From: Dehalococcoidia bacterium
GTDB lineage: Bacteria; Chloroflexota; Dehalococcoidia; Bin125
Assembly: GCA_965203775.1 (NCBI GenBank)
Contig: OZ241913.1
Location: forward strand, 1,081,390-1,145,389
DNA: 64,000 nucleotides
Direction of reading: 5' to 3'
Below are positions 92 through 58,324 of this stretch, one piece after another. The translations under genes and the position numbers were made by a program. The notes beneath the pieces were generated by a model. It was not told the origin of the DNA and made no database searches. It worked only from the letters and a program-made list of their open reading frames with translations. Within the stretch, counting starts at the first letter, position 1; each line of letters opens with the position of its first letter.

Positions 92-778
92 CTAACCGCC
101 CACGAACTCTCCCGCGCTCGGACACCGATCACGCAGCACGCAGGCTCCGCACGCTGGCCGCCGCGCGTGGCAGACCCGCCGCCCGTGGCGAATGATCGAC
201 ACATGGAAGTCGTAGAACTTCGCCTCCGGCATCTGCGCCTCCAGCGCCTCGTGCGCCTTCACCGCGTTCACCTTCGCCCCAATCAGCCCCAACCGCTGCG
301 ACACCCGATGCACATGCGTATCCACCGGCAGCGCCGCCCGCCCCAGCGAAAACAGCAGCACGCACGCCGCCGTCTTCGGCCCCACCCCCGGCAGCGACAC
401 CAGCCACTCCTTCGCCTCTGCAATCGGCATCGTCTCCAGGAGCGACGCATCCCAGCCCGGCCCCAGCCGCTCGCGCAGCTGCGTCAGCAGCTCCCGCATT
501 CGCGCCGCCTTGGTCGGCGCGAGACCGCCCGGCCGAATCGTCTCCTCCAACTCCGCCGGATCGCTCGCCAGCACCGCGTCCCAGTCCGCGTACCGCCCCA
601 GCAACTGCTGAAACGCCCGCCCCGAGTTCGTGTCCGACGTGTTCTGCGAAAGCAGCGTCAGCACCAGCTCGGTGACCGGATCCCCCGTCGGACGCCACGG
701 CGTCAGCGGCGCCTCCTTTGTCAGCCGATTGACAATCGCCGTCGGCCGCAAGGGCTTCACCGCGCTCACCGCGCTCAT
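92..778 (-). CDS. nth: endonuclease III (Nth, HhH-GPD base-excision glycosylase)
   Basis: HhH-GPD region and C-terminal 4Fe-4S motif CHARRPACGACVLRDRC. Start trimmed to the ATG at 776-778 (MSAVSAVKPL), which overlaps the upstream gene stop as ATGA. Confidence 0.8.
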   Translation of the reverse strand: MSAVSAVKPLRPTAIVNRLTKEAPLTPWRPTGDPVTELVLTLLSQNTSDTNSGRAFQQLLGRYADWDAVLASDPAELEETIRPGGLAPTKAARMRELLTQLRERLGPGWDASLLETMPIAEAKEWLVSLPGVGPKTAACVLLFSLGRAALPVDTHVHRVSQRLGLIGAKVNAVKAHEALEAQMPEAKFYDFHVSIIRHGRRVCHARRPACGACVLRDRCPSAGEFVGG

Positions 779-1920
779 CCCGCCGCCAGCAGACGCTGCG
801 CCGCGCCTCCGCCGGGCAACCGCCCGAGCTCCGCCGCGTAGGTGCTCTCGCCCCGCATCACCCTGAAGAACGCCCGCCACAGGTAGTTCACCGCATTCGA
901 CGCCTGCCGCGCCAGCCACGGCCAGCTCGTCGCGCAGAAGTAGTAGAGCCGCGAGATCGTCCGCGCCGCGTCCAGCTCCGGCTGAATCTCCCGGTCCACC
1001 GCCGCGCCGTATGCCGCCGCCGCATCGCCCCCGCCCAAAACCGCCCCCGCCGCCAGATTCGCCGAGTGCGCCGCGTAGGCGATCCCCTCCGCCGTGAACT
1101 CGTCGGCCAGCCCCGCCGCGTCGCCCAGCAGCAGCGCCGCGCCTTGCGCGACCGGCTCGCTGCGACTCCGCCGATAGCGGATCGGGTGCCCCGCCACCTG
1201 CTCAATCTCCGCCTCCGCCAGCCCCAGACGCTCCAGGTACCGCCCCGCCTGCCGCCGAATCTCCCGCCCCCGCCCCGGCGCCGCGACCAACCCCACCGAA
1301 AGCGCCCCCTCTTTCGGAAAGACCCAGCCGTACCCCCACGGCCGGTAGCCCACATCCACATTCGCCGCCCCCCGCCAGCGCTCAAGCGCCCCCTGCGGCG
1401 CGGCCACCTCCAGCTCATACGCCGCGCTGCGCGTGCCCCCGACGGCGAAGCCGCACTGCCGCGCGGTGATGCCCGTCGCGCCGTCCGCCGCGATCAACCA
1501 GCGCGCCGTCTCGCGCCCGCGCGGCGTCTCCACCTCGACCCCCTCCGAGCGCAGCGCGACCCCTTGCGCCGGGCAGCCGTCGCGCAGCTCCGCGCCCGCC
1601 GCGAGCGCCTCGTCCGCCAGCCACTCGTCGAACCGATCGCGCATCACCATCGCCGCCAGCGGCTCGGCCGAGCGCTTGCGAAACCAGCTCGAACCGAAGC
1701 GGCTCACCTCGATCGTGTCCACCACGCCCTCCGACACCTCCCCGATCGGCAGCCCCAGCAGCGCCTTCGTGCGCGCCGGCACGCCGCCCCCGCAGGCCTT
1801 GTAGCGCGGCAGCCGCTGCTGCTCCAGCAGCAGCGGCCGCGCGCCGCCCGCGGCCAGCCGACGCGCCGCCGTCGCGCCCGCCGGCCCCGCTCCGATCACG
1901 ATCGCGTCCCAGGCCGCCAT
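775..1920 (-). CDS. geranylgeranyl reductase family FAD-dependent oxidoreductase
   Basis: N-terminal dinucleotide-binding motif IVIGAGPAGATAARRLA. ATG at 1918-1920 preferred over the GTG at 1957-1959. Confidence 0.7.
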   Translation of the reverse strand: MAAWDAIVIGAGPAGATAARRLAAGGARPLLLEQQRLPRYKACGGGVPARTKALLGLPIGEVSEGVVDTIEVSRFGSSWFRKRSAEPLAAMVMRDRFDEWLADEALAAGAELRDGCPAQGVALRSEGVEVETPRGRETARWLIAADGATGITARQCGFAVGGTRSAAYELEVAAPQGALERWRGAANVDVGYRPWGYGWVFPKEGALSVGLVAAPGRGREIRRQAGRYLERLGLAEAEIEQVAGHPIRYRRSRSEPVAQGAALLLGDAAGLADEFTAEGIAYAAHSANLAAGAVLGGGDAAAAYGAAVDREIQPELDAARTISRLYYFCATSWPWLARQASNAVNYLWRAFFRVMRGESTYAAELGRLPGGGAAQRLLAAG

Positions 1921-1950
1921 CGCCGCAGGGTACCCCCGCGCGGCGGCGGC

Positions 1951-1956
1951 TATAAT
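1951..1956 (+). promoter_or_regulatory. candidate -10 hexamer TATAAT about 33 nt upstream of the acyl-CoA dehydrogenase ATG, with GAGGAG Shine-Dalgarno at 1977-1982
   Basis: Perfect TATAAT in an otherwise >70% GC context. No convincing -35. Confidence 0.3.
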
Positions 1957-1988
1957 CACCGCACGACGGCATCCCCGAGGAGATCGAC

Positions 1989-3170
1989 ATGGACTACAAA
2001 TTCACGACCGAGGACGAATCGTTCCGCAGCGAGGTGGTCGACTTCATCGACGGCAACTGGGTGCCGCCCCAGGGCGCCAACGAACCCGGCGACGACTCCT
2101 TCTACGAGGCCGAGCGCGCCTTCGAGAAGCGCGCCGCCAGCAAGGGCTGGCTGACGATGGCCTGGCCGACCGAATACGGCGGCCGCGGCGCGAGCCACAT
2201 CCAGCAGACCATCTACCGCGAAGAGGCCGCCTACCGCGGCGCGCCCGGCGCCGGCGGACAGGGCATCTCGATGGTCGGCCCCTGCCTCATGCTGCACGGC
2301 ACCGAAGAACAGCGCCGCGAGCACCTCCCCCGCATCGCCAACGCCGAGTCCTACTGGGCCCAGGGCTTCTCCGAGCCCGGCAACGGCTCCGACCTCGCCG
2401 GACTCCAGACCCGCGCCGTCCGCGACGGCGACGACTTTGTCATCAACGGCCAGAAAATCTGGACCTCTGGCGCCCACCACGCCGACTGGATCCACGTCCT
2501 CACCCGCACCGACCCCGAAGCCCCCAAGCACCGCGGCATCTCCTACTTCCTGCTCGACATGAACTCGCCCGGCATCGAAGTCCGACCGCTGATCAACATG
2601 CTCGGCGAGCACGGCTTCAACGAGGTCTACTTCACCGATGTCCGCGTCCCCGCCAGCAACATGCTCGGCGAGTACAACCGCGGCTGGTACGTCGCCGCCA
2701 CCCTGCTCGACTTCGAGCGCTCCGGCGTCCAGTGGTCCGCCACCTCCCGCAAGAGCATTGAGCTGATGTCCGACTACGCCGCCGACCAGGCCGGCCGCCG
2801 CGGCGGCGCCACCCTGCTCGAAGACCCCGGCGTCCGCAACGGCCTCGCCAACCTCGCCATCGAGTCCGAAATCTCCCGCCTGATCTCCTACCGCGTCGTC
2901 GACATGCAGAGCAAAGGCCTCGTCCCCAACCACGAAGCCTCCATGTCCAAGATGTTCGGCAGCGAGCTCGGCCAGCGCGTCGCCCGCTTCGGCGTCAACA
3001 TGATTGGCCTCCCCTCCCAGCGCATCGACCCCGACGACCCCGCCGCGCCGATCGCCGCTCGCCTCGGACGCTCCTACATGTCCAGCGTGCCCAGCACCAT
3101 CGCCGCCGGCACCAGCGAAATCCAGCGCAACATCATCGCCACCCGCGGCCTCGGCCTCCCCCGCCAGTAA
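1989..3170 (+). CDS. acyl-CoA dehydrogenase family protein
   Basis: 393 aa. ACAD N/M/C architecture (WPTEYGGRG..., ...TSEIQRNIIA near the C-terminus). Confidence 0.85.
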   Translation: MDYKFTTEDESFRSEVVDFIDGNWVPPQGANEPGDDSFYEAERAFEKRAASKGWLTMAWPTEYGGRGASHIQQTIYREEAAYRGAPGAGGQGISMVGPCLMLHGTEEQRREHLPRIANAESYWAQGFSEPGNGSDLAGLQTRAVRDGDDFVINGQKIWTSGAHHADWIHVLTRTDPEAPKHRGISYFLLDMNSPGIEVRPLINMLGEHGFNEVYFTDVRVPASNMLGEYNRGWYVAATLLDFERSGVQWSATSRKSIELMSDYAADQAGRRGGATLLEDPGVRNGLANLAIESEISRLISYRVVDMQSKGLVPNHEASMSKMFGSELGQRVARFGVNMIGLPSQRIDPDDPAAPIAARLGRSYMSSVPSTIAAGTSEIQRNIIATRGLGLPRQ

Positions 3171-3277
3171 ACCGCTGCGCACACCCGCGCGCCGCGCTCC
3201 CGCCCGAATTCGCGGCTTCGTGGCACGCTGGAGGTGCGTCAACCGGAAGGTGTCGCACCGGGCAGGAGGAACCCCCG

Positions 3278-3504
3278 TGACGACTGAAGACCCCGCCCTC
3301 TCGCCGCCCGCAGGCACAAAGGCCGAAGATCTGCTCAATCAGCTGGAGATCGCGCGTGCCGCCCGCGAACACGCTCGAAAGGTCCGCGCAGGCAAGCCCG
3401 TCGTCGGCCGCTGGCCGCTCAAGCCTCCGACGAAGCCCGCGGGCGCTCCCGCGGACGAGCCGGTGCCTGGATTGCTCGATCGCTGGCGACAGGGCGGCGC
3501 GTGA
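3278..3504 (+). CDS. small hypothetical protein (75 aa), translationally coupled to the downstream protease (GTGA overlap)
   Basis: GTG start after the acad stop. Its stop TGA overlaps the GTG start of the 3501 ORF. No recognisable family. Confidence 0.35.
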
Positions 3505-4349
3505 CCACATCTGGAGCCTCCGGAACCAACCCGAAACGAACGCCCCTCTTTGAGGCCGCGCAAGGGCGTCGCTATCACCGCCAGGAACTCATTCGCGAGT
3601 ACCAGGCCGCGTTTCAATGCCGCTTGGTCGTGTTTGTGGGAGAGATCAGCCCCTACAGCGTCACATTCTTCGAAGACATGTTGTACGACGCTGATCCTTC
3701 TGAAGACCTCCATGTCATCCTGAGTACGCCCGGCGGCGACGGAGAAACGGCGCTTCGACTGATTCGTCAAGCGCAGGCTCGATGCGAAGAACTGACTGTC
3801 ATTGTGCCTGATCGTGCAAAAAGCGCGGGGACGCTGTTCGTGCTTGGGGCGCATTCCATCCTGATGGGACCGAGCAGCGATCTTGGCCCAGTAGATCCGC
3901 AAATTCCGATGCCGGACCAAAGCCTGGTCGCCGCGAAGACGATCATTGCGGCCGTTGAGCACGCTGAGGAACGCATTCGGAACGACCCGAACACATTCCC
4001 GTTGTACGCATCGCTCCTGGCCGACGTCAGCGGTCTACAAGTTCAGGCGGCCCGCGAGGCGATCGAGCGATCAAACGACCTCATTCATGAAGCGCTCGCA
4101 TCATGCACAGACCGCAGCGACGATTGCGTGAATGAAATTGCCAAACAGGCGCTGCCGCGTTTGGTCAAGGAACCGCAGAGCCATGCCGCCACGATCTCAG
4201 CGCACGACGCCGAGCGATTGGGCATGCCGGTGCTCCATGCCGATCCCGCAGGCGAGCAGTGGGAGAGCATCTGGCGGCTTTGGGTGGAGTACGTCGCAAT
4301 TCCCGAGACTCATGTCTATGAAGGAGAACGAGCCTCGCACATCTTCTGA
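3501..4349 (+). CDS. SDH-family (serine dehydrogenase proteinase, ClpP/crotonase-fold, S49-like) serine protease
   Basis: Motifs LSTPGGDGETALRLI and AKSAGTLFVLGAHSILMGPSSDLGPVDPQI. Local GC about 58% against about 72% in the flanks. Confidence 0.6.
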   Translation: MTTSGASGTNPKRTPLFEAAQGRRYHRQELIREYQAAFQCRLVVFVGEISPYSVTFFEDMLYDADPSEDLHVILSTPGGDGETALRLIRQAQARCEELTVIVPDRAKSAGTLFVLGAHSILMGPSSDLGPVDPQIPMPDQSLVAAKTIIAAVEHAEERIRNDPNTFPLYASLLADVSGLQVQAAREAIERSNDLIHEALASCTDRSDDCVNEIAKQALPRLVKEPQSHAATISAHDAERLGMPVLHADPAGEQWESIWRLWVEYVAIPETHVYEGERASHIF

Positions 4350-4424
4350 TCGAAGCGGTGTCACGTAGGCATGCAGCCAGAACCGCGACATCCAACGTGC
4401 GCGGAACATGATCAGGAAACTCCC

Positions 4425-4748
4425 ATGACCGAATGGGAACGCCTCGGCGGGCTGACGGTCCGCAAATTCGATTGGGTGGATCATCTGCGCGATGACGAAG
4501 ATGTCGCCGCGTACCTCGAGGCCGCCTACGAGTGGGGCGACCCCAAATTCATCACCACATGCCTCGCGGAAGTCGCCCGCGCCTACGGCGTAGCTGAGCT
4601 TCAACGCCCCGGCAGCGACGGCGCCGAGACGCTTGGCGACGCAACAGCCGCCCTCAACACGCTGCAGGCCGCGCAGATCCTCGACCTCCTGCGCAATTTC
4701 GGCTTGCAAATGCACTCCGCCGAGCCGATCCAGACACCCACTCGCTGA
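4425..4748 (+). CDS. divergent addiction-module antidote-like protein (HigA/TIGR02684-like N-terminal region, degenerate HTH)
   Basis: FDWVDHLRDDEDVAAYLEAAYEWGDPKFITTCLAEVARAYG resembles the conserved N-terminal part of the HI1420-type antidote family. AGGAAA SD sits 6 nt before the ATG at 4425. The longer ORF from 4371 is less likely. Confidence 0.5.
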   Translation: MTEWERLGGLTVRKFDWVDHLRDDEDVAAYLEAAYEWGDPKFITTCLAEVARAYGVAELQRPGSDGAETLGDATAALNTLQAAQILDLLRNFGLQMHSAEPIQTPTR

Positions 4749-4832
4749 AGAGAAGACGCTCTGCTATCGCTTCTCTGCCTGTAAGCTGGACTCGTAGGCC
4801 GCCTTGTCTACTCCTGAACCGATCGGAGCAGC

Positions 4833-5870
4833 ATGCGTGACGGAATCGACGCCGCCCTCCACATAGTGCATCGAAACGGCCCCGAATACGGCCCCGGCGC
4901 CTCGAACCATGCGCCGATGGCGATCGAGGCGATGACCGCAATGGGGCGCGGCGGCGGCATCATTCCTTGGCTGGAGGCCTACCGCGCAGAGCTGGACGAA
5001 GCCCCGCGCAGCGTCGCCCCAATCGCGCCCGACGAGTGGCGCGAAGCCCTTTCCGATCCAACCCGCGTCACCGATTGGATCGCCTTTTTCGACCGCGAGA
5101 TCGACCAACTTGGCTGGCGCGAAGCGGTCGCCTTGTGGGTTCCCCGCCTCGCGCCCGCGCTGATCTCCCGCGCGGCCCACGGACTAATCCGAACCACCCA
5201 CGCCGCGCGCAGCCTGACCAACGCCGAAACAGCGCCGCGCTTGCACGAACTCGCCCAGGGCCTGGGCTACTGGGCTTCCACCTGGCAAACGCTGCCCGGC
5301 GAGCCCGCCGCGTTTGCCGCTCCGCGCGCGCCGTCGCAGGCCATGCAAGGCGTTCAGCGCTTGCACGAACCCGGCTTCGTCAGCCAGGGCTTGATCTGGC
5401 AGACCATGCTGCGAATGCGCGAACAACCCAACTTCGCCGATACCATCAACCTGGCCGCGCCGGGCGAAAGCGTATCGGCGTTTCTGTCCAATCTCACCCA
5501 AACCGCCGCGCACTGGTACATGAGCGACCGCACGGTACCGTTCGTGTTCGTCCACACCGTAACCGCGCCGAGCGCGTTGCGCTTTGTTACACCGTATCTC
5601 TCGGACGCCAATGCGCGGCTGGCCGCCCGTTACGCCTGGCAAGCCTGCGCCGCCATGTACGCCTGGTACATGCTCGAAGAGCCGAACCCTGCCTACGATA
5701 CCGACGCCGAACTGCCCGGGCGGGACGACCTGATCGACCGCGCAATCCACGCCGCCGGCCCGCACGCAATCAAATTCACCGAAGCCTGCCTGCGCGAGTA
5801 CGAACTCAACCCCAACCCAATCTATCTGCATGCCGCCCACGACGCCACGGAGCGGATCGGCGACGGCTAA
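4833..5870 (+). CDS. hypothetical protein (345 aa), possibly DUF4243/questin-oxidase-like
   Basis: Long ORF with non-repetitive composition. Family call is from memory only. Confidence 0.45.
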   Translation: MRDGIDAALHIVHRNGPEYGPGASNHAPMAIEAMTAMGRGGGIIPWLEAYRAELDEAPRSVAPIAPDEWREALSDPTRVTDWIAFFDREIDQLGWREAVALWVPRLAPALISRAAHGLIRTTHAARSLTNAETAPRLHELAQGLGYWASTWQTLPGEPAAFAAPRAPSQAMQGVQRLHEPGFVSQGLIWQTMLRMREQPNFADTINLAAPGESVSAFLSNLTQTAAHWYMSDRTVPFVFVHTVTAPSALRFVTPYLSDANARLAARYAWQACAAMYAWYMLEEPNPAYDTDAELPGRDDLIDRAIHAAGPHAIKFTEACLREYELNPNPIYLHAAHDATERIGDG

Positions 5871-5899: not shown

Positions 5900-6800
5900 T
5901 GTTCACACTAATCACGCCCTCCACCCCTCCCTCCGTCATTCCTGCGCAGGCAGGAACCCAGGCGACCACCAGCGCCTGCGCTCGCCACCGGTATCTCGCC
6001 ACGCCCACCACCCCCCCAACACCCACCCCTTCCCCAATTCATCCCTCCCCCCTTCCAGGGGGGAGGTGAGGAGGGGGGTGGGCAGCCACGCCAACGCACC
6101 AAGCGCACCCAGCCCCAATCCCGACGCCACCCCTCCGTCGCACCCGCCCCAACCGTCATACCCCCGCCCCCTCTGTCACTCCTGCGCCCTCTTCCGTCAT
6201 TCCTGCGCAGGCAGGAACCCAGGCGACCACCAGCGCCTGCGCTCGCCACCGGTATCTCGTCACGCCCACCACCCAGCCAACACCCACCCCTTCCCCAATT
6301 CATCCCTCCCCCCTACTAGGGGGGAGGTGAGGAGGGGGGTGGGCAGCCACAAGCCAACGCACCAAACGCGCCCTGCCCCGATCCCTACCCCACACCTCCA
6401 TCGCCCCCGCCCCAACCGTCATACCCGCGCCCCTCTGTCACTCCTGCGCCCCCCTCCGTCATTCCTGCGCAGGCAGGAACCACGCGACCCCCAACCTACC
6501 CCCAAATCCACCCCCCACACGCATCCCTCCTCACACCCCCCAACACCCACCCCTTCCCCAATTCATCCCTCCCCCCCTACCAGGGGGGAGGTGAGGTGGG
6601 GGGTGAGAAGCCACGAGCCAACGCCCCAAGCGCACCCAGCCCCAATCCCTACGCCACACCTCCATCGCCCCCGCCCCCTCCGTCATCCTTGCACCTCCTC
6701 CGCCGCACCCGCCCCCTTCCGTCATTCCTGCCCCCTCCGTCATTCCTGCGCCCCCTTCGTCATTCCTGCGCAGGCAGGAACGGAAGGAAAGAGCGCAAAC
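5900..6800. repeat. tandem triplication (about 260 bp unit) of composite REP-like element (module A + module B)
   Basis: Three near-identical units starting near 5930, 6190 and 6450. Each holds GTCATTCCTGCGCAGGCAGGAAC and CCCTTCCCCAATTCATCCCTCCCCCC..GGGGGGAGGTGAGG. Confidence 0.9.
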
Positions 6801-8165: not shown

Positions 8166-8393
8166 TCACTCATCTCTTCGCCGCGCCTCAGGATGGCCGT
8201 CGGCTGAATCCATCGCGCCACCGGACTGCTCCGCAACTTGGCTCATTCCGCGCGAGCGAGCGATGTCTCCGAGCGCTTTCGCGACGAGCATCGGGTCGCC
8301 CTCCTCCAGCGCCGCGTTCAGATACGCAAGACGATTAGCCTCGTCTCCGAGATAATCCGCTGCGTCCCAGCGATAGGTCTCGATTCTTGCCAT
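8166..8393 (-). pseudogene. truncated/decayed addiction-module antidote (TIGR02684-like) remnant
   Basis: WDAADYLGDEANRLAYLNAALEEGDPMLVAKALGDIARSRGMSQVAEQ matches the antidote-family N-terminus, but the C-terminal HTH part is degenerate and the ORF is only 75 aa. Confidence 0.45.
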
Positions 8394-11837: not shown

Positions 11838-11976
11838 CCCCACCCCCACCGCCACCCCCGCACAGGCAGGAACCCCACCGTCATTCCTGCGCCCCCCACC
11901 GTCATTCCTGCGCAGGCAGGAACCCGCGCACCCACCCCGCGCACCCACCCTCCGCCACCCCTGCGCCCCCCCACCG

Positions 11977-13000
11977 TCATTCCTGCGCAGGCAGGAATGT
12001 GGAGTCAGCTTGCAAATGCAACAGTTGGTTGTGGAGCACTTCGGCGGGGGTCTGGTAGTCGAGGCACTTGCGGGGGGTGTTGTTGGCGGCGCGGATGACG
12101 GCGTGGAGCGCGGCGGCGGAGAGCGCGTTGAGGTCGGTGTTGCGGTGCAGGCGGCGGCGCAGCCGGCCGATCGCGTTCTCCACGCCGCCCTTCTGCCAGG
12201 GCGAATGCGGGTCGCAGAAGAACGTCTCGATGCCCAGGTCGTGGAGCCGGTGATGGCGGACGAACTCGGAGCCGTTGTCGAAGGTCGCGCTGCGCCGGAG
12301 GGCCGGCGGGAGGCGCCGGAACAGCCCGCGCAGGACGCGGCTGAGCAGCTCGGCGGCCTTGCTCGGCAGAGCCGCGGCGAGCAGCGCGCGGGAGCGGCGC
12401 TCCTGCAGCACGAGCAGCGGCGGGCGCCCCTGGCCGAAGCTCATCAGGTCCACCTCCCAGTGGCCGTAGACCAGCCGCGCGTCGGCCTCGGGCGGGCGCT
12501 CGCTGAGCGGGCGGCGCTCCTGCAGGTAATCGGTCGAGCCGCGCGCGCCGCGCGTGCGGCTGTAGCCGCGCTTGACCCGCCCGCGGGGCAGATAGCGGGC
12601 GAAGCGGTAGTCCTTGGTGCGGGCGATCTGGGCGTGGATGAAGCGGTAGATGCTCTCGGGCGAGATCACATGCCGCCCGGCTTCGCGTTTGAGCCGTCCG
12701 GCGACCTGCTGGGGCGAGAGGCCGGCGGCGAGCATGTTCAGCACCTGCTCGCGCAGTTCGGCGTCGCGCTCCAGCCGCAAGCCGCGGAAGCCCAGTCATG
12801 CAGTGGGCGCGGGTTTGCTGCTGGGCGTAGTCCGGGTCGTAGCCGCCGTCGGCGCGCGCGTTGCGCTTCAACTCTCGAGTAATCGTCGCTGGCGCGCGAT
12901 CCAGAGTTGCCGCGATTTGCCGCGCGGAGCGGCCCTCGGCGTGTAGTCGGGCCAGCCGCCAGCGCTCCTCGCGGCTGAGCTGCGTGTGCGTTCGGGCCAT
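11977..13000 (-). pseudogene. IS30-family transposase, frameshifted (HTH N-terminus in one frame, DDE core in another)
   Basis: N-terminal MARTHTQLSREERWRLARLHAEGRSARQIAATLDRAPATITRELKRN in frame 12005..13000. DDE core (HWEVDLM, FDNGSEF, CDPHSPWQKGGVENAIGRLRR) in frame 11977..12780. Frames switch near 12780-12800. Confidence 0.7.
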
Positions 13001-57556: not shown

Positions 57557-58324
57557 CTAGCTGTTCGCGCTGATGAACTCCTGCACCCGCCGCCAGGCGT
57601 CGGCGCAGGCGTCCTGATGCTCGTCATACGTGCGGTCGAAGAACGAGTGCGGCGCGCCCTCGTAGGTGATGAACTCGTTCGCCACGCCCCGCGCGTCCAG
57701 CGCCGCCGCGAACTTGTCCACCTCCGCCCGCGGAATGCCCTCATCCGCGCCGCCCATCAGACCGAGCAGCGGGCAGGCGACCTGCTCGACTTGCCCCAGC
57801 GGCGAAGCGCCCCCATTCAGGCCCTCCCGCGTTGGGTGGCCGTAGAAGCCGATCGCCCCGCTCAGGCCGTGCCCCGCCGCCCCTTGCAGCCACGAGTTGC
57901 TCCCGCCGAAGCAGAAGCCCACCGTGAACAGCGCCCGCTCCGCGTCGTCGGCCCGCAGCACCGCCGCCGCCGCCGCCACATCCGCCGCGATCCCCTCCGG
58001 CGTCGTGCCCCGCACGTGCGGCCAGAAGTCGAACTCCGCGTCGCGCTTGCCCACCCCGGCGGTCCGCCCGAAATAGTCGATCGCGACCGCCTCCACGCCC
58101 GCCTCCGCGAAGCGAATCGCCAGCTCCTCGTAGAAGCGGAACAGCCCGCGCACATCGGGCAGCACCACGATCGCCGGCCCGCCCGACTGCTCCGGCCGCG
58201 CGTGAAACGCGGCGAACTCCACCCCGTCCGACGCCCGCAGCGTCAGATCCTCCAGATCGACCGCCGCCCCCGCAATCGGCGGCACCGCCGGCAGAGCCTC
58301 GTATCGGTGGCACATCGCGCGCAC
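57557..58324 (-). CDS. dienelactone hydrolase family protein
   Basis: alpha/beta hydrolase with GFCFGG nucleophile elbow. Confidence 0.75.
   Translation of the reverse strand: MRAMCHRYEALPAVPPIAGAAVDLEDLTLRASDGVEFAAFHARPEQSGGPAIVVLPDVRGLFRFYEELAIRFAEAGVEAVAIDYFGRTAGVGKRDAEFDFWPHVRGTTPEGIAADVAAAAAVLRADDAERALFTVGFCFGGSNSWLQGAAGHGLSGAIGFYGHPTREGLNGGASPLGQVEQVACPLLGLMGGADEGIPRAEVDKFAAALDARGVANEFITYEGAPHSFFDRTYDEHQDACADAWRRVQEFISANS

Follow-up and report, generated by a model that had tools for sequence, protein, structure and literature searches.

The subject of the present analysis is a small island of three genes in a 64,000-nucleotide (nt) stretch of the genome of a Dehalococcoidia bacterium (contig OZ241913.1); the whole stretch is referred to here as the window, and all positions are on its scale unless another locus is named. 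The island lies between the acad gene and the DUF4243/Questin_oxidase gene and consists of three co-directional genes that encode a 75-amino-acid (aa) product of a small open reading frame (ORF), a 282-aa serine protease of the SDH family and a 107-aa HI1420/HigA-like protein. The first two genes belong to a cassette that is conserved across distant lineages.

The small gene occupies positions 3277-3504 of the forward strand (GTG 3277 to TGA 3504), with a GGAGG ribosome-binding site at 3264-3268 (+), read from the sequence 8 nt before the GTG, and encodes a basic protein. The preliminary description of this DNA had recognized this ORF and placed its start one base off, at 3278. The gene for the acidic protease (3501-4349, +) also begins with a GTG. 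This codon (3501-3503) overlaps the TGA of the small ORF (3502-3504), and the resulting GTGA at 3501-3504 (+) is the start/stop overlap that had been taken, correctly in its position, for translational coupling. The HI1420/HigA-like gene follows at 4425-4748 (+), starting with ATG 4425; an alternative ATG at 4371 would extend the product to 125 aa. Beyond these three genes, no further credible ORF is present within the island region, and a RelE/HigB-type ORF is absent from both of its strands; the place of such a toxin upstream of the HigA-like gene is taken by the protease gene, as previously described. No sigma-70-like promoter was found around the cassette, and the single terminator-like match there is within chance. 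No second copy of the cassette exists within the window.

The island stands out in base composition, most sharply at third codon positions. The protease gene has a GC content of 59.4% (65.7% at third codon positions, GC3) and the HigA-like gene 63.8%, compared to 69.2% for the window overall, 68.4% (GC3 93.4%) for acad and 66.8% (GC3 80.6%) for the DUF4243 gene. The GC dip reported in the preliminary description is accordingly real, whereas the flanking genes are at about 67-68% GC rather than the 72% given there. With 71.1% GC and a GC3 of 75.0%, the small ORF is not itself low-GC.

The two-gene cassette and its products

Two conserved peptide patterns of the protease were scanned over one genome per species (185,579 genomes), which yielded 208 protease relatives; 80 loci were fetched from these, and the locus counts given below refer to these 80. 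The carriers include Dehalococcoidia and other Chloroflexota, Gemmatimonadota, Gammaproteobacteria and Alphaproteobacteria, several classes of Actinomycetota, Acidobacteriota, Spirochaetia, Rhodothermales and Dormibacteria, at least eight major lineages in all. Almost all of the carrier genomes are metagenome-assembled, the single cultured strain being Actinocorallia longicatena JCM 9377.

A homologue of the small protein was detected in 40 loci in a single pass (39 at E < 0.1) and in 80/80 loci after iteration (jackhmmer). The 75-aa ORF, a side detail in the preliminary description, is thus the universal partner of the protease. The small ORF is located directly upstream of the protease gene and is co-directional with it in 78 of the 80 loci. 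In 27 of the 80, the two genes share the 4-bp start/stop overlap, and nearly all other loci with a placeable start show an overlap of at most about 30 nt or a gap that does not exceed about 35 nt. The two exceptions, L010 and L041, carry an IS256-like transposase gene that splits the small ORF from an intact protease ORF, inserted inside the small ORF in L010 (2646-3878) and just after it in L041 (2574-3980). All-against-all clustering of the ORFs of the 80 loci revealed no third gene that recurs across lineages, and the 150 immediate neighbours of the cassettes match 138 different Pfam families. Given the small ORF in every locus, its coupling to the protease gene and the lack of a third recurrent gene, the conserved unit consists of the small protein and the protease. 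We therefore consider it very probable that this two-gene cassette is the unit proper, with the HigA-like gene as a passenger.

The protease scores 46.4 bits against PF01972 (SDH_protease; gathering score 31.3) over residues 70-244, and the motifs LSTPGGDG, AKSAGT and GPVDPQI, by which the preliminary description had recognized an SDH-family enzyme, are all in place. Against the NCBIfam equivalog model NF047768 (Clp_like_SDH) the score is 59.8 bits, far under the curated cut-off of 250, and hence the protein is a relative rather than an equivalog of that family. Another match (6e-33) is to phrog_11747, a phage family without a known function. In an alignment of 41 relatives, K107-S108 (within AKSAGT), D127, D132-P133-Q134 and H228 are invariant, and S108, D132 and H228 are still invariant after the addition of plasmid and phage relatives of 21-31% identity, which fits the Ser-Asp-His order that gave the SDH family its name. 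The protease thus appears to keep an intact predicted Ser108/Asp132/His228 triad. The codon of the predicted nucleophile Ser108, invariant in 41 close and 10 distant relatives, is located at 3822-3824 (+); that of Asp132 (in GPVDPQ) at 3894-3896 (+), with its predicted role in the triad drawn from the family definition; and that of His228, the predicted triad histidine in an SH motif of the C-terminal helical domain, at 4182-4184 (+). Ser108 aligns with the AASAGT motif of the NfeD protease 1510-N, which holds the catalytic Ser97 of that enzyme.

The AlphaFold2 (AF2) model of the protease has a mean predicted local distance difference test score (pLDDT) of 90.2 and shows a core of ClpP type with a helical domain behind it at the C-terminus. 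Among solved structures, Foldseek gave ClpP subunits and 1510-N as the best folds (probability 1.00), and none of the solved-structure matches belongs to PF01972. The best viral folds are "serine dehydrogenase proteinases" of giant viruses (TM-score about 0.6). Hyperionvirus, Edafosvirus, Klosneuvirus and relatives of Mimivirus and Marseillevirus, which provide these best structural matches, each encode several SDH-type proteinases. Compared to PF01972, then, the protease has a score over the threshold, a ClpP-like fold, the invariant Ser, Asp and His, and members from giant viruses as its closest folds, but differs in forming a distinct subfamily with an N-terminal helix of its own (PLYEA..A.RYERQ.LIR) and the C-terminal helical domain, and in its constant pairing with a small basic protein that belongs to no family. 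Since the protein is acidic (isoelectric point, pI, 4.9) and lacks a hydrophobic segment of membrane-spanning length (maximum KD19 1.07), it is probably a soluble cytoplasmic enzyme. The ratio of non-synonymous to synonymous substitution rates (dN/dS) for the protease gene is 0.09 in comparison with L001. Four protease homologues (P0018, P0057, P0089 and P0118) carry the NCBI name "serine dehydrogenase", which appears to be a mis-expansion of SDH (Ser-Asp-His); these proteins are proteases.

The small protein has a conserved core of about 45 residues, PAL.PP..(D.DW).ERIE.AK.ARE..KAR.GKP..F, with a helix-like sequence pattern, whereas its N-terminus and C-terminal tail are variable. The median pI of the core is 10.2 (net charge about +4), against a median of 5.1 (about -10) for the proteases; neither protein contains a transmembrane segment. 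With a dN/dS of 0.07 in comparison with L001, the small ORF is under strong purifying selection, and the 75-aa product is independently called by public gene callers. The small protein encoded in the window has no match in Pfam, NCBIfam, PADLOC or PHROGs, and when the 80 members were compared to Pfam singly, no consistent family emerged; DUF6927 is matched by 4 of the 80 (best E 7.6e-4), which we take as noise. In large sequence databases, a word-index search and an exhaustive profile search returned 5 matches each; because the protein is short and divergent, such searches stay among close relatives. DUF6527, the family that precedes homologous proteases in the Bub-type operons discussed below, was also considered and is unrelated to the small protein (hhalign probability 0.07%). 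The small protein diverges faster than the protease (42% against 66% identity between the window and L002) and in step with it, the pairwise identities of the two being correlated at r = 0.68.

Exchange of the cassette

In 70 of the 79 other loci, the GC content of the cassette is below that of the 3-kb flanks on each side (mean difference -5.3 points, Wilcoxon p = 4e-13), so that the GC dip in the window is more than a chance fluctuation. The proteases are about 50-60% identical whatever the taxon, that is, similarity across phyla is about the same as that between related genomes. At the same time, the genomic position of the cassette can be stable within the Dehalococcoidia: the cassette is found downstream of the same acad gene in L001, L006, L056, L063, L002, L044 and L038; in L001, L006 and L056, it is also followed by the same DUF4243 gene.

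Comparison of the window with L006 and L056 is the most informative in this respect. In L006, the proteins encoded on either side of the cassette are nearly the same as in the window (acad 98%, DUF4243 84%, SDR 88% and HhH-GPD protein 85% identical), whereas identity falls to 59% for the protease, and tblastn does not detect the small protein at all. For L006 and L056 taken together, the ranges are 96-98% for acad, 83-84% for DUF4243 and 72-88% for SDR, against 54-59% for the protease, and the small protein of L056 is matched by tblastn only over 48 residues (44%). At the nucleotide level (blastn), positions 92-3173 and 4793-5870 of the window align with L006 at 87.7% and 81.9% identity, respectively; in the interval between the two blocks, alignment is limited to part of the protease gene (68%). 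The DNA homology ends about 60 nt past the acad stop codon and returns 40 nt before the DUF4243 start codon, which delimits an exchangeable segment at 3174-4792. Near-identical flanks around a divergent cassette between the same genes indicate replacement of the cassette via recombination in the conserved flanks. Accessory conflict genes typically show this pattern, although it is not confined to them. The suggestion in the preliminary description that the island was acquired is borne out to the extent that the low GC content and the replacement seen against L006 and L056 mark the segment as foreign or exchangeable. Nothing that could mark an integration site, be it flanking direct repeats, a tRNA gene or an Rfam RNA element, was found. 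Taken together, these comparisons indicate that the two genes behave as a single unit in inheritance, divergence and replacement, and that this unit is exchanged horizontally, including between phyla.

Possible functions of the cassette and relation to known systems

Judging from gene order and comparative genomics, we propose that the two genes form an autonomous toxin-antitoxin (TA)-like or defence-like cassette in which the small protein restrains its cognate protease, and put the probability of this reading at roughly 0.45. Under this scheme, the small protein would bind the protease and hold it in check in the manner of a type II antitoxin or a pseudo-substrate; loss or displacement of the small protein would free the protease to cut cellular or invader proteins, and the outcome could be addiction or an effect similar to abortive infection. 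The proposal derives, on the one hand, from the order of the genes, with a small, fast-evolving basic protein encoded first and coupled to an enzyme that has kept its active site and, on the other hand, from the behaviour of the pair, the members of which are never apart, are patchily spread, have a GC content below that of the host and are swapped as alleles at a fixed site. The preliminary description had raised the possibility of a protease-based TA or abortive-infection module; the conflict-type appearance of the locus persists in the present analysis, and it is the assignment of the HigA-like protein as the partner of the protease that does not.

The cassette shares several features with type II TA modules, in particular with HigBA. 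The small gene comes first, and the larger enzyme gene behind it is linked to it by translational coupling; the constant co-occurrence of two adjacent, co-directional and coupled genes, a trait of type II TA, is seen for the small ORF and the protease in 80/80 loci; the small partner evolves faster; and the cassette is mobile, patchy and low in GC, with a HigA/HI1420-type gene present in the island. The differences are the lack of a HigB/RelE toxin, the putative effector being instead a protease of 282 aa, and the fact that the HigA-like protein is not the conserved partner.

Some of the genomic contexts are suggestive of defence-type neighbours. In three carriers with annotated contexts, PIN and YoeB/Phd TA pairs, Fic and LexA are encoded close to the cassette, along with Mu-type, IS21 and DDE transposases and also plain metabolic genes. 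Roughly 10 of the 150 immediate neighbours match PADLOC models at E <= 1e-10, an estimate among the matches listed; they include a methylase and a helicase of DISARM, a type IIG restriction-modification enzyme, an M78/CapP-like protein, PDC-S01 and SNF2 helicases. Distant relatives of the protease (21-24% identity) are encoded at accessory sites in Porphyromonas phages and in a Mu-like Shewanella phage. In one of the former (Porphyromonas phage phage027a_F0568; L084 2687-4714), the gene for the SDH-type protease has a 112-aa gene of unknown function directly upstream; this group adjoins a HicA/HicB pair and is surrounded by genes for portal, adaptor and neck proteins, an apparently accessory location.

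Several observations weigh against a TA-like or defence-like function. Many of the neighbours of the cassette are ordinary metabolic genes, and the number of PADLOC matches among them, being a plain count, is not a measure of enrichment. None of the three island proteins has a match in PADLOC-DB 2.0 at E <= 0.1. A 282-aa protease is unlike the classic small type II toxins and, to our knowledge, no characterized type II toxin has a ClpP fold. No convincing operator was recognized: a 9-nt inverted repeat at 3233-3259 is not kept in L001 and, across the loci, inverted repeats upstream of the cassettes only just exceed those in shuffled controls (6.2 vs 5.5 nt). Furthermore, the correlated divergence of the two proteins follows from co-inheritance alone, and their strict co-occurrence equally fits an obligate pair of an enzyme with an adaptor or with a substrate.

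The closest annotated relatives of the protease come from a different context. These proteins are 28-31% identical to it in the alignment (30-34% by tblastn, with 88-96% query coverage), share its N-terminal motif and are encoded by the fifth and last gene of multiubiquitin-E2-ThiF(E1)-DUF6527 operons of the Bub (6E) type on plasmids of Methylocystis, Phenylobacterium, Rhizobium and Microbacterium (L081, L082, L092, L093 and L094), where the gene for the protease relative overlaps the preceding gene. In L081, L082, L092 and L094, the operon is immediately preceded by an oppositely oriented gene for a ribbon-helix-helix (RHH/CopG) protein (annotated as DUF6290 in L081), and a Fic gene is found near the operon in L081, L082 and L092. 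In the passages searched of the paper that describes the Bub systems, the only peptidases named are the JAB peptidase BubC and BubE (DUF6527), with no mention of an additional protease; the term ClpP does not occur in its text (PMC11601596). Although the plasmid operons contain a full-length relative of the protease as their last gene, no E1, E2, ubiquitin-like protein (Ubl) or DUF6527 gene is found in the window or among the recurrent neighbours in the 80 loci, and the small partner in the window has no relation to DUF6527. A broader proposal is that the cassette represents an unrecognized protease-based TA or abortive-infection family, in which a ClpP-fold protease would be kept inactive by a short basic protein of helix-like pattern and set free once this partner is lost or displaced, and alleles would be swapped at fixed slots and between phyla, with the same subfamily separately recruited as the terminal gene of plasmid Bub-type operons; taken as a whole, this proposal seems rather unlikely.

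The nearest solved structure by sequence (E = 7e-7) is the NfeD protease 1510-N (MEROPS S49), which shares the GG...SAGT active-site region and is likewise encoded beside its protein partner. This match covers only residues 47-140; the protease in the window lacks the membrane anchor, no stomatin (Band_7) is among the recurrent neighbour families listed and, whereas 1510-N uses a Ser-Lys dyad, the family in the window conserves Ser, Asp and His. The NfeD protease cleaves the stomatin encoded in its own operon, and 1510-N was deposited as a "stomatin-specific protease". By analogy with it, or with peptidases that mature ubiquitin-like proteins, the small protein might be a dedicated substrate, that is, a precursor from which, for example, the variable tail after the GKP..F core is trimmed to give an active peptide, tag or regulator. 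The division of the small protein into a conserved core and a variable C-terminal tail is compatible with such processing, as is the position of the closest annotated protease relatives at the end of Bub/6E operons, systems in which peptidases process or remove the Ubl (PMC11601596). Nevertheless, the neighbourhood of the cassette contains no recurrent modifying enzyme, transporter, E1 or E2, the small protein lacks a domain of beta-grasp size as well as any link to DUF6527, and no conserved motif resembling a cleavage site is definable beyond the core; we consider a protease-substrate pair improbable.

Slightly less probable still is an accessory housekeeping protease with a small adaptor or chaperone, involved in quality control or stress response, in which case the GC content and synteny would be those of an often-transferred accessory operon. 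ClpP-fold proteases commonly work with small adaptors, and both the frequent metabolic neighbours and the persistence of the cassette next to acad in Dehalococcoidia lineages with 88-98%-identical acad proteins would agree with a housekeeping role. However, the sparse and patchy spread (the 208 matches among 185,579 species genomes) is not what would be expected of such an operon, nor is the fact that alleles at the same site diverge as much as those from different phyla. The consistently lower GC content of the cassette compared to the host, the tolerance of IS elements inside it and the occurrence of relatives in accessory positions of phages and on plasmids also argue against it.

Within the literature searched on PF01972 (formerly DUF114), SDH proteinases and protease toxins, we found nothing on the function of the family and no role assigned to it, and no paper on the pair of small protein and protease. 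Relative to the family libraries and literature searched, PF01972 itself is known, though functionally blank, whereas the apparently obligate small partner, the cassette behaviour and the probable link to Bub operons seem to be new. SDH-type ClpP-fold proteases constitute a large Pfam family in bacteria, archaea, phages and giant viruses, and in a self-contained subfamily with an obligate partner, what the family does can be tested directly on two genes and a single point mutant. Should the cassette indeed be a protease-based addiction or defence module, it would extend the known range of TA and defence effectors by a new class and provide a lead on the role of the homologous fifth gene in Bub-type operons. 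The analysis also corrects a likely trail of mis-annotation, namely the name "serine dehydrogenase" given to SDH proteases and the label "antidote" on what is an orphan HigA-like gene.

The HigA-like gene and minor features of the window

The 107-aa protein was assigned in the preliminary description to the HI1420 antidote family. This holds for PF21716 (dnstrm_HI1420), which is matched with 37.3 bits against a threshold of 27 over profile positions 2-88 of 90, and does not hold for TIGR02684, where the score of 44.1 bits is under the NCBI cut-off of 53.7. The C-terminal half carries the segment RP.SDGAETLGDA.AAL, which appears to take the place of the usual helix-turn-helix (HTH) motif; the single-sequence AF2 model (pLDDT 48.5) is too poor to judge the presence of an HTH. 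The HI1419/HigB-type killer gene that directly precedes members of the HI1420 family is absent from this position in the window and in L001, L089, L090 and L091.

Relatives of the HigA-like protein are few: a database of 5.8 billion sequences contains only 14, all 67-93% identical, of which 13 are called at 107 aa and one at 105 aa. Three of these could be placed on short contigs (L089-L091), where the gene lies behind the 3' end of a gene for a protease 87-93% identical to that of the window. The spacer between the protease and the HigA-like gene is 75-76 nt in L001, L089, L090 and L091, and the next gene differs in one of L089-L091. The same spacer and the same protease partner suggest that, within a narrow clade, the HigA-like gene travels with the cassette. 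Outside that clade, the gene pair is not conserved as neighbours. Among the 80 loci, the HigA-like gene follows the protease only in L001 (protease 92% identical); two further matches, in L002 and L044, lie elsewhere on the opposite strand, and L006, with the same flanking genes (acad 98% identical), contains the cassette without it. With a dN/dS of 0.28-0.30, compared to 0.08-0.12 for the protease, the HigA-like gene is also constrained by purifying selection, though less tightly than either cassette gene. It thus seems to have joined the cassette only in one narrow Dehalococcoidia lineage, as a clade-specific passenger, and most likely its product is an orphan regulator of antitoxin type and not the partner of the protease.

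The alternative put forward in the preliminary description, namely that the protease is a toxin or abortive-infection effector and the downstream HigA-like protein its antidote, perhaps in a three-part system with the small ORF that would resemble ImmA/IrrE, has in its favour the PF21716 score, the constant length of 107 aa, a dN/dS of about 0.29, the fixed spacer behind the protease even next to a differing downstream gene and the lack of a HigB-type gene at the locus, but is very unlikely given that the gene is missing from 79 of the 80 cassette loci, that neither an HTH nor an antitoxin family is recurrent behind the protease in other loci, that its relatives are limited to one narrow clade, that its non-synonymous sites change about three times faster than those of the protease gene and that a truncated gene of the same type elsewhere in the window suggests that orphan copies are common in this lineage. 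The resemblance to the ImmA/IrrE (M78) metalloproteases with their HTH repressors is one of analogy only, that is, a protease gene beside a gene for an HTH-type regulator; the enzyme in the window is a serine protease of ClpP fold, the pairing is not conserved and there is no known cleavage relationship.

The truncated copy is a second HI1420/PF21716-like gene at 8166-8393 (-), with 75 aa and only profile positions 2-57, and syntenic full-length copies (119-120 aa) are present in L002 (6237-6599) and L085 (10268-10627). No HigB-type toxin gene was identified beside this second gene in the window, L002 or L085, and orphan copies of the HI1420 family appear to be a habit of this lineage.

Two further features of the window can be mentioned. 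A 261-bp tandem repeat with 3.1 copies is located at 5932-6731, between the DUF4243 gene and a DinB-like gene; it is built on the short palindromic unit CGTCATTCCTGCGCAGGCAGGAAC, which also occurs elsewhere in the window, including short units at 11899-11998, and in L001 and L006. Finally, a tRNA-SeC gene is present at 58150-58234 (-), suggesting that the organism probably uses selenocysteine.

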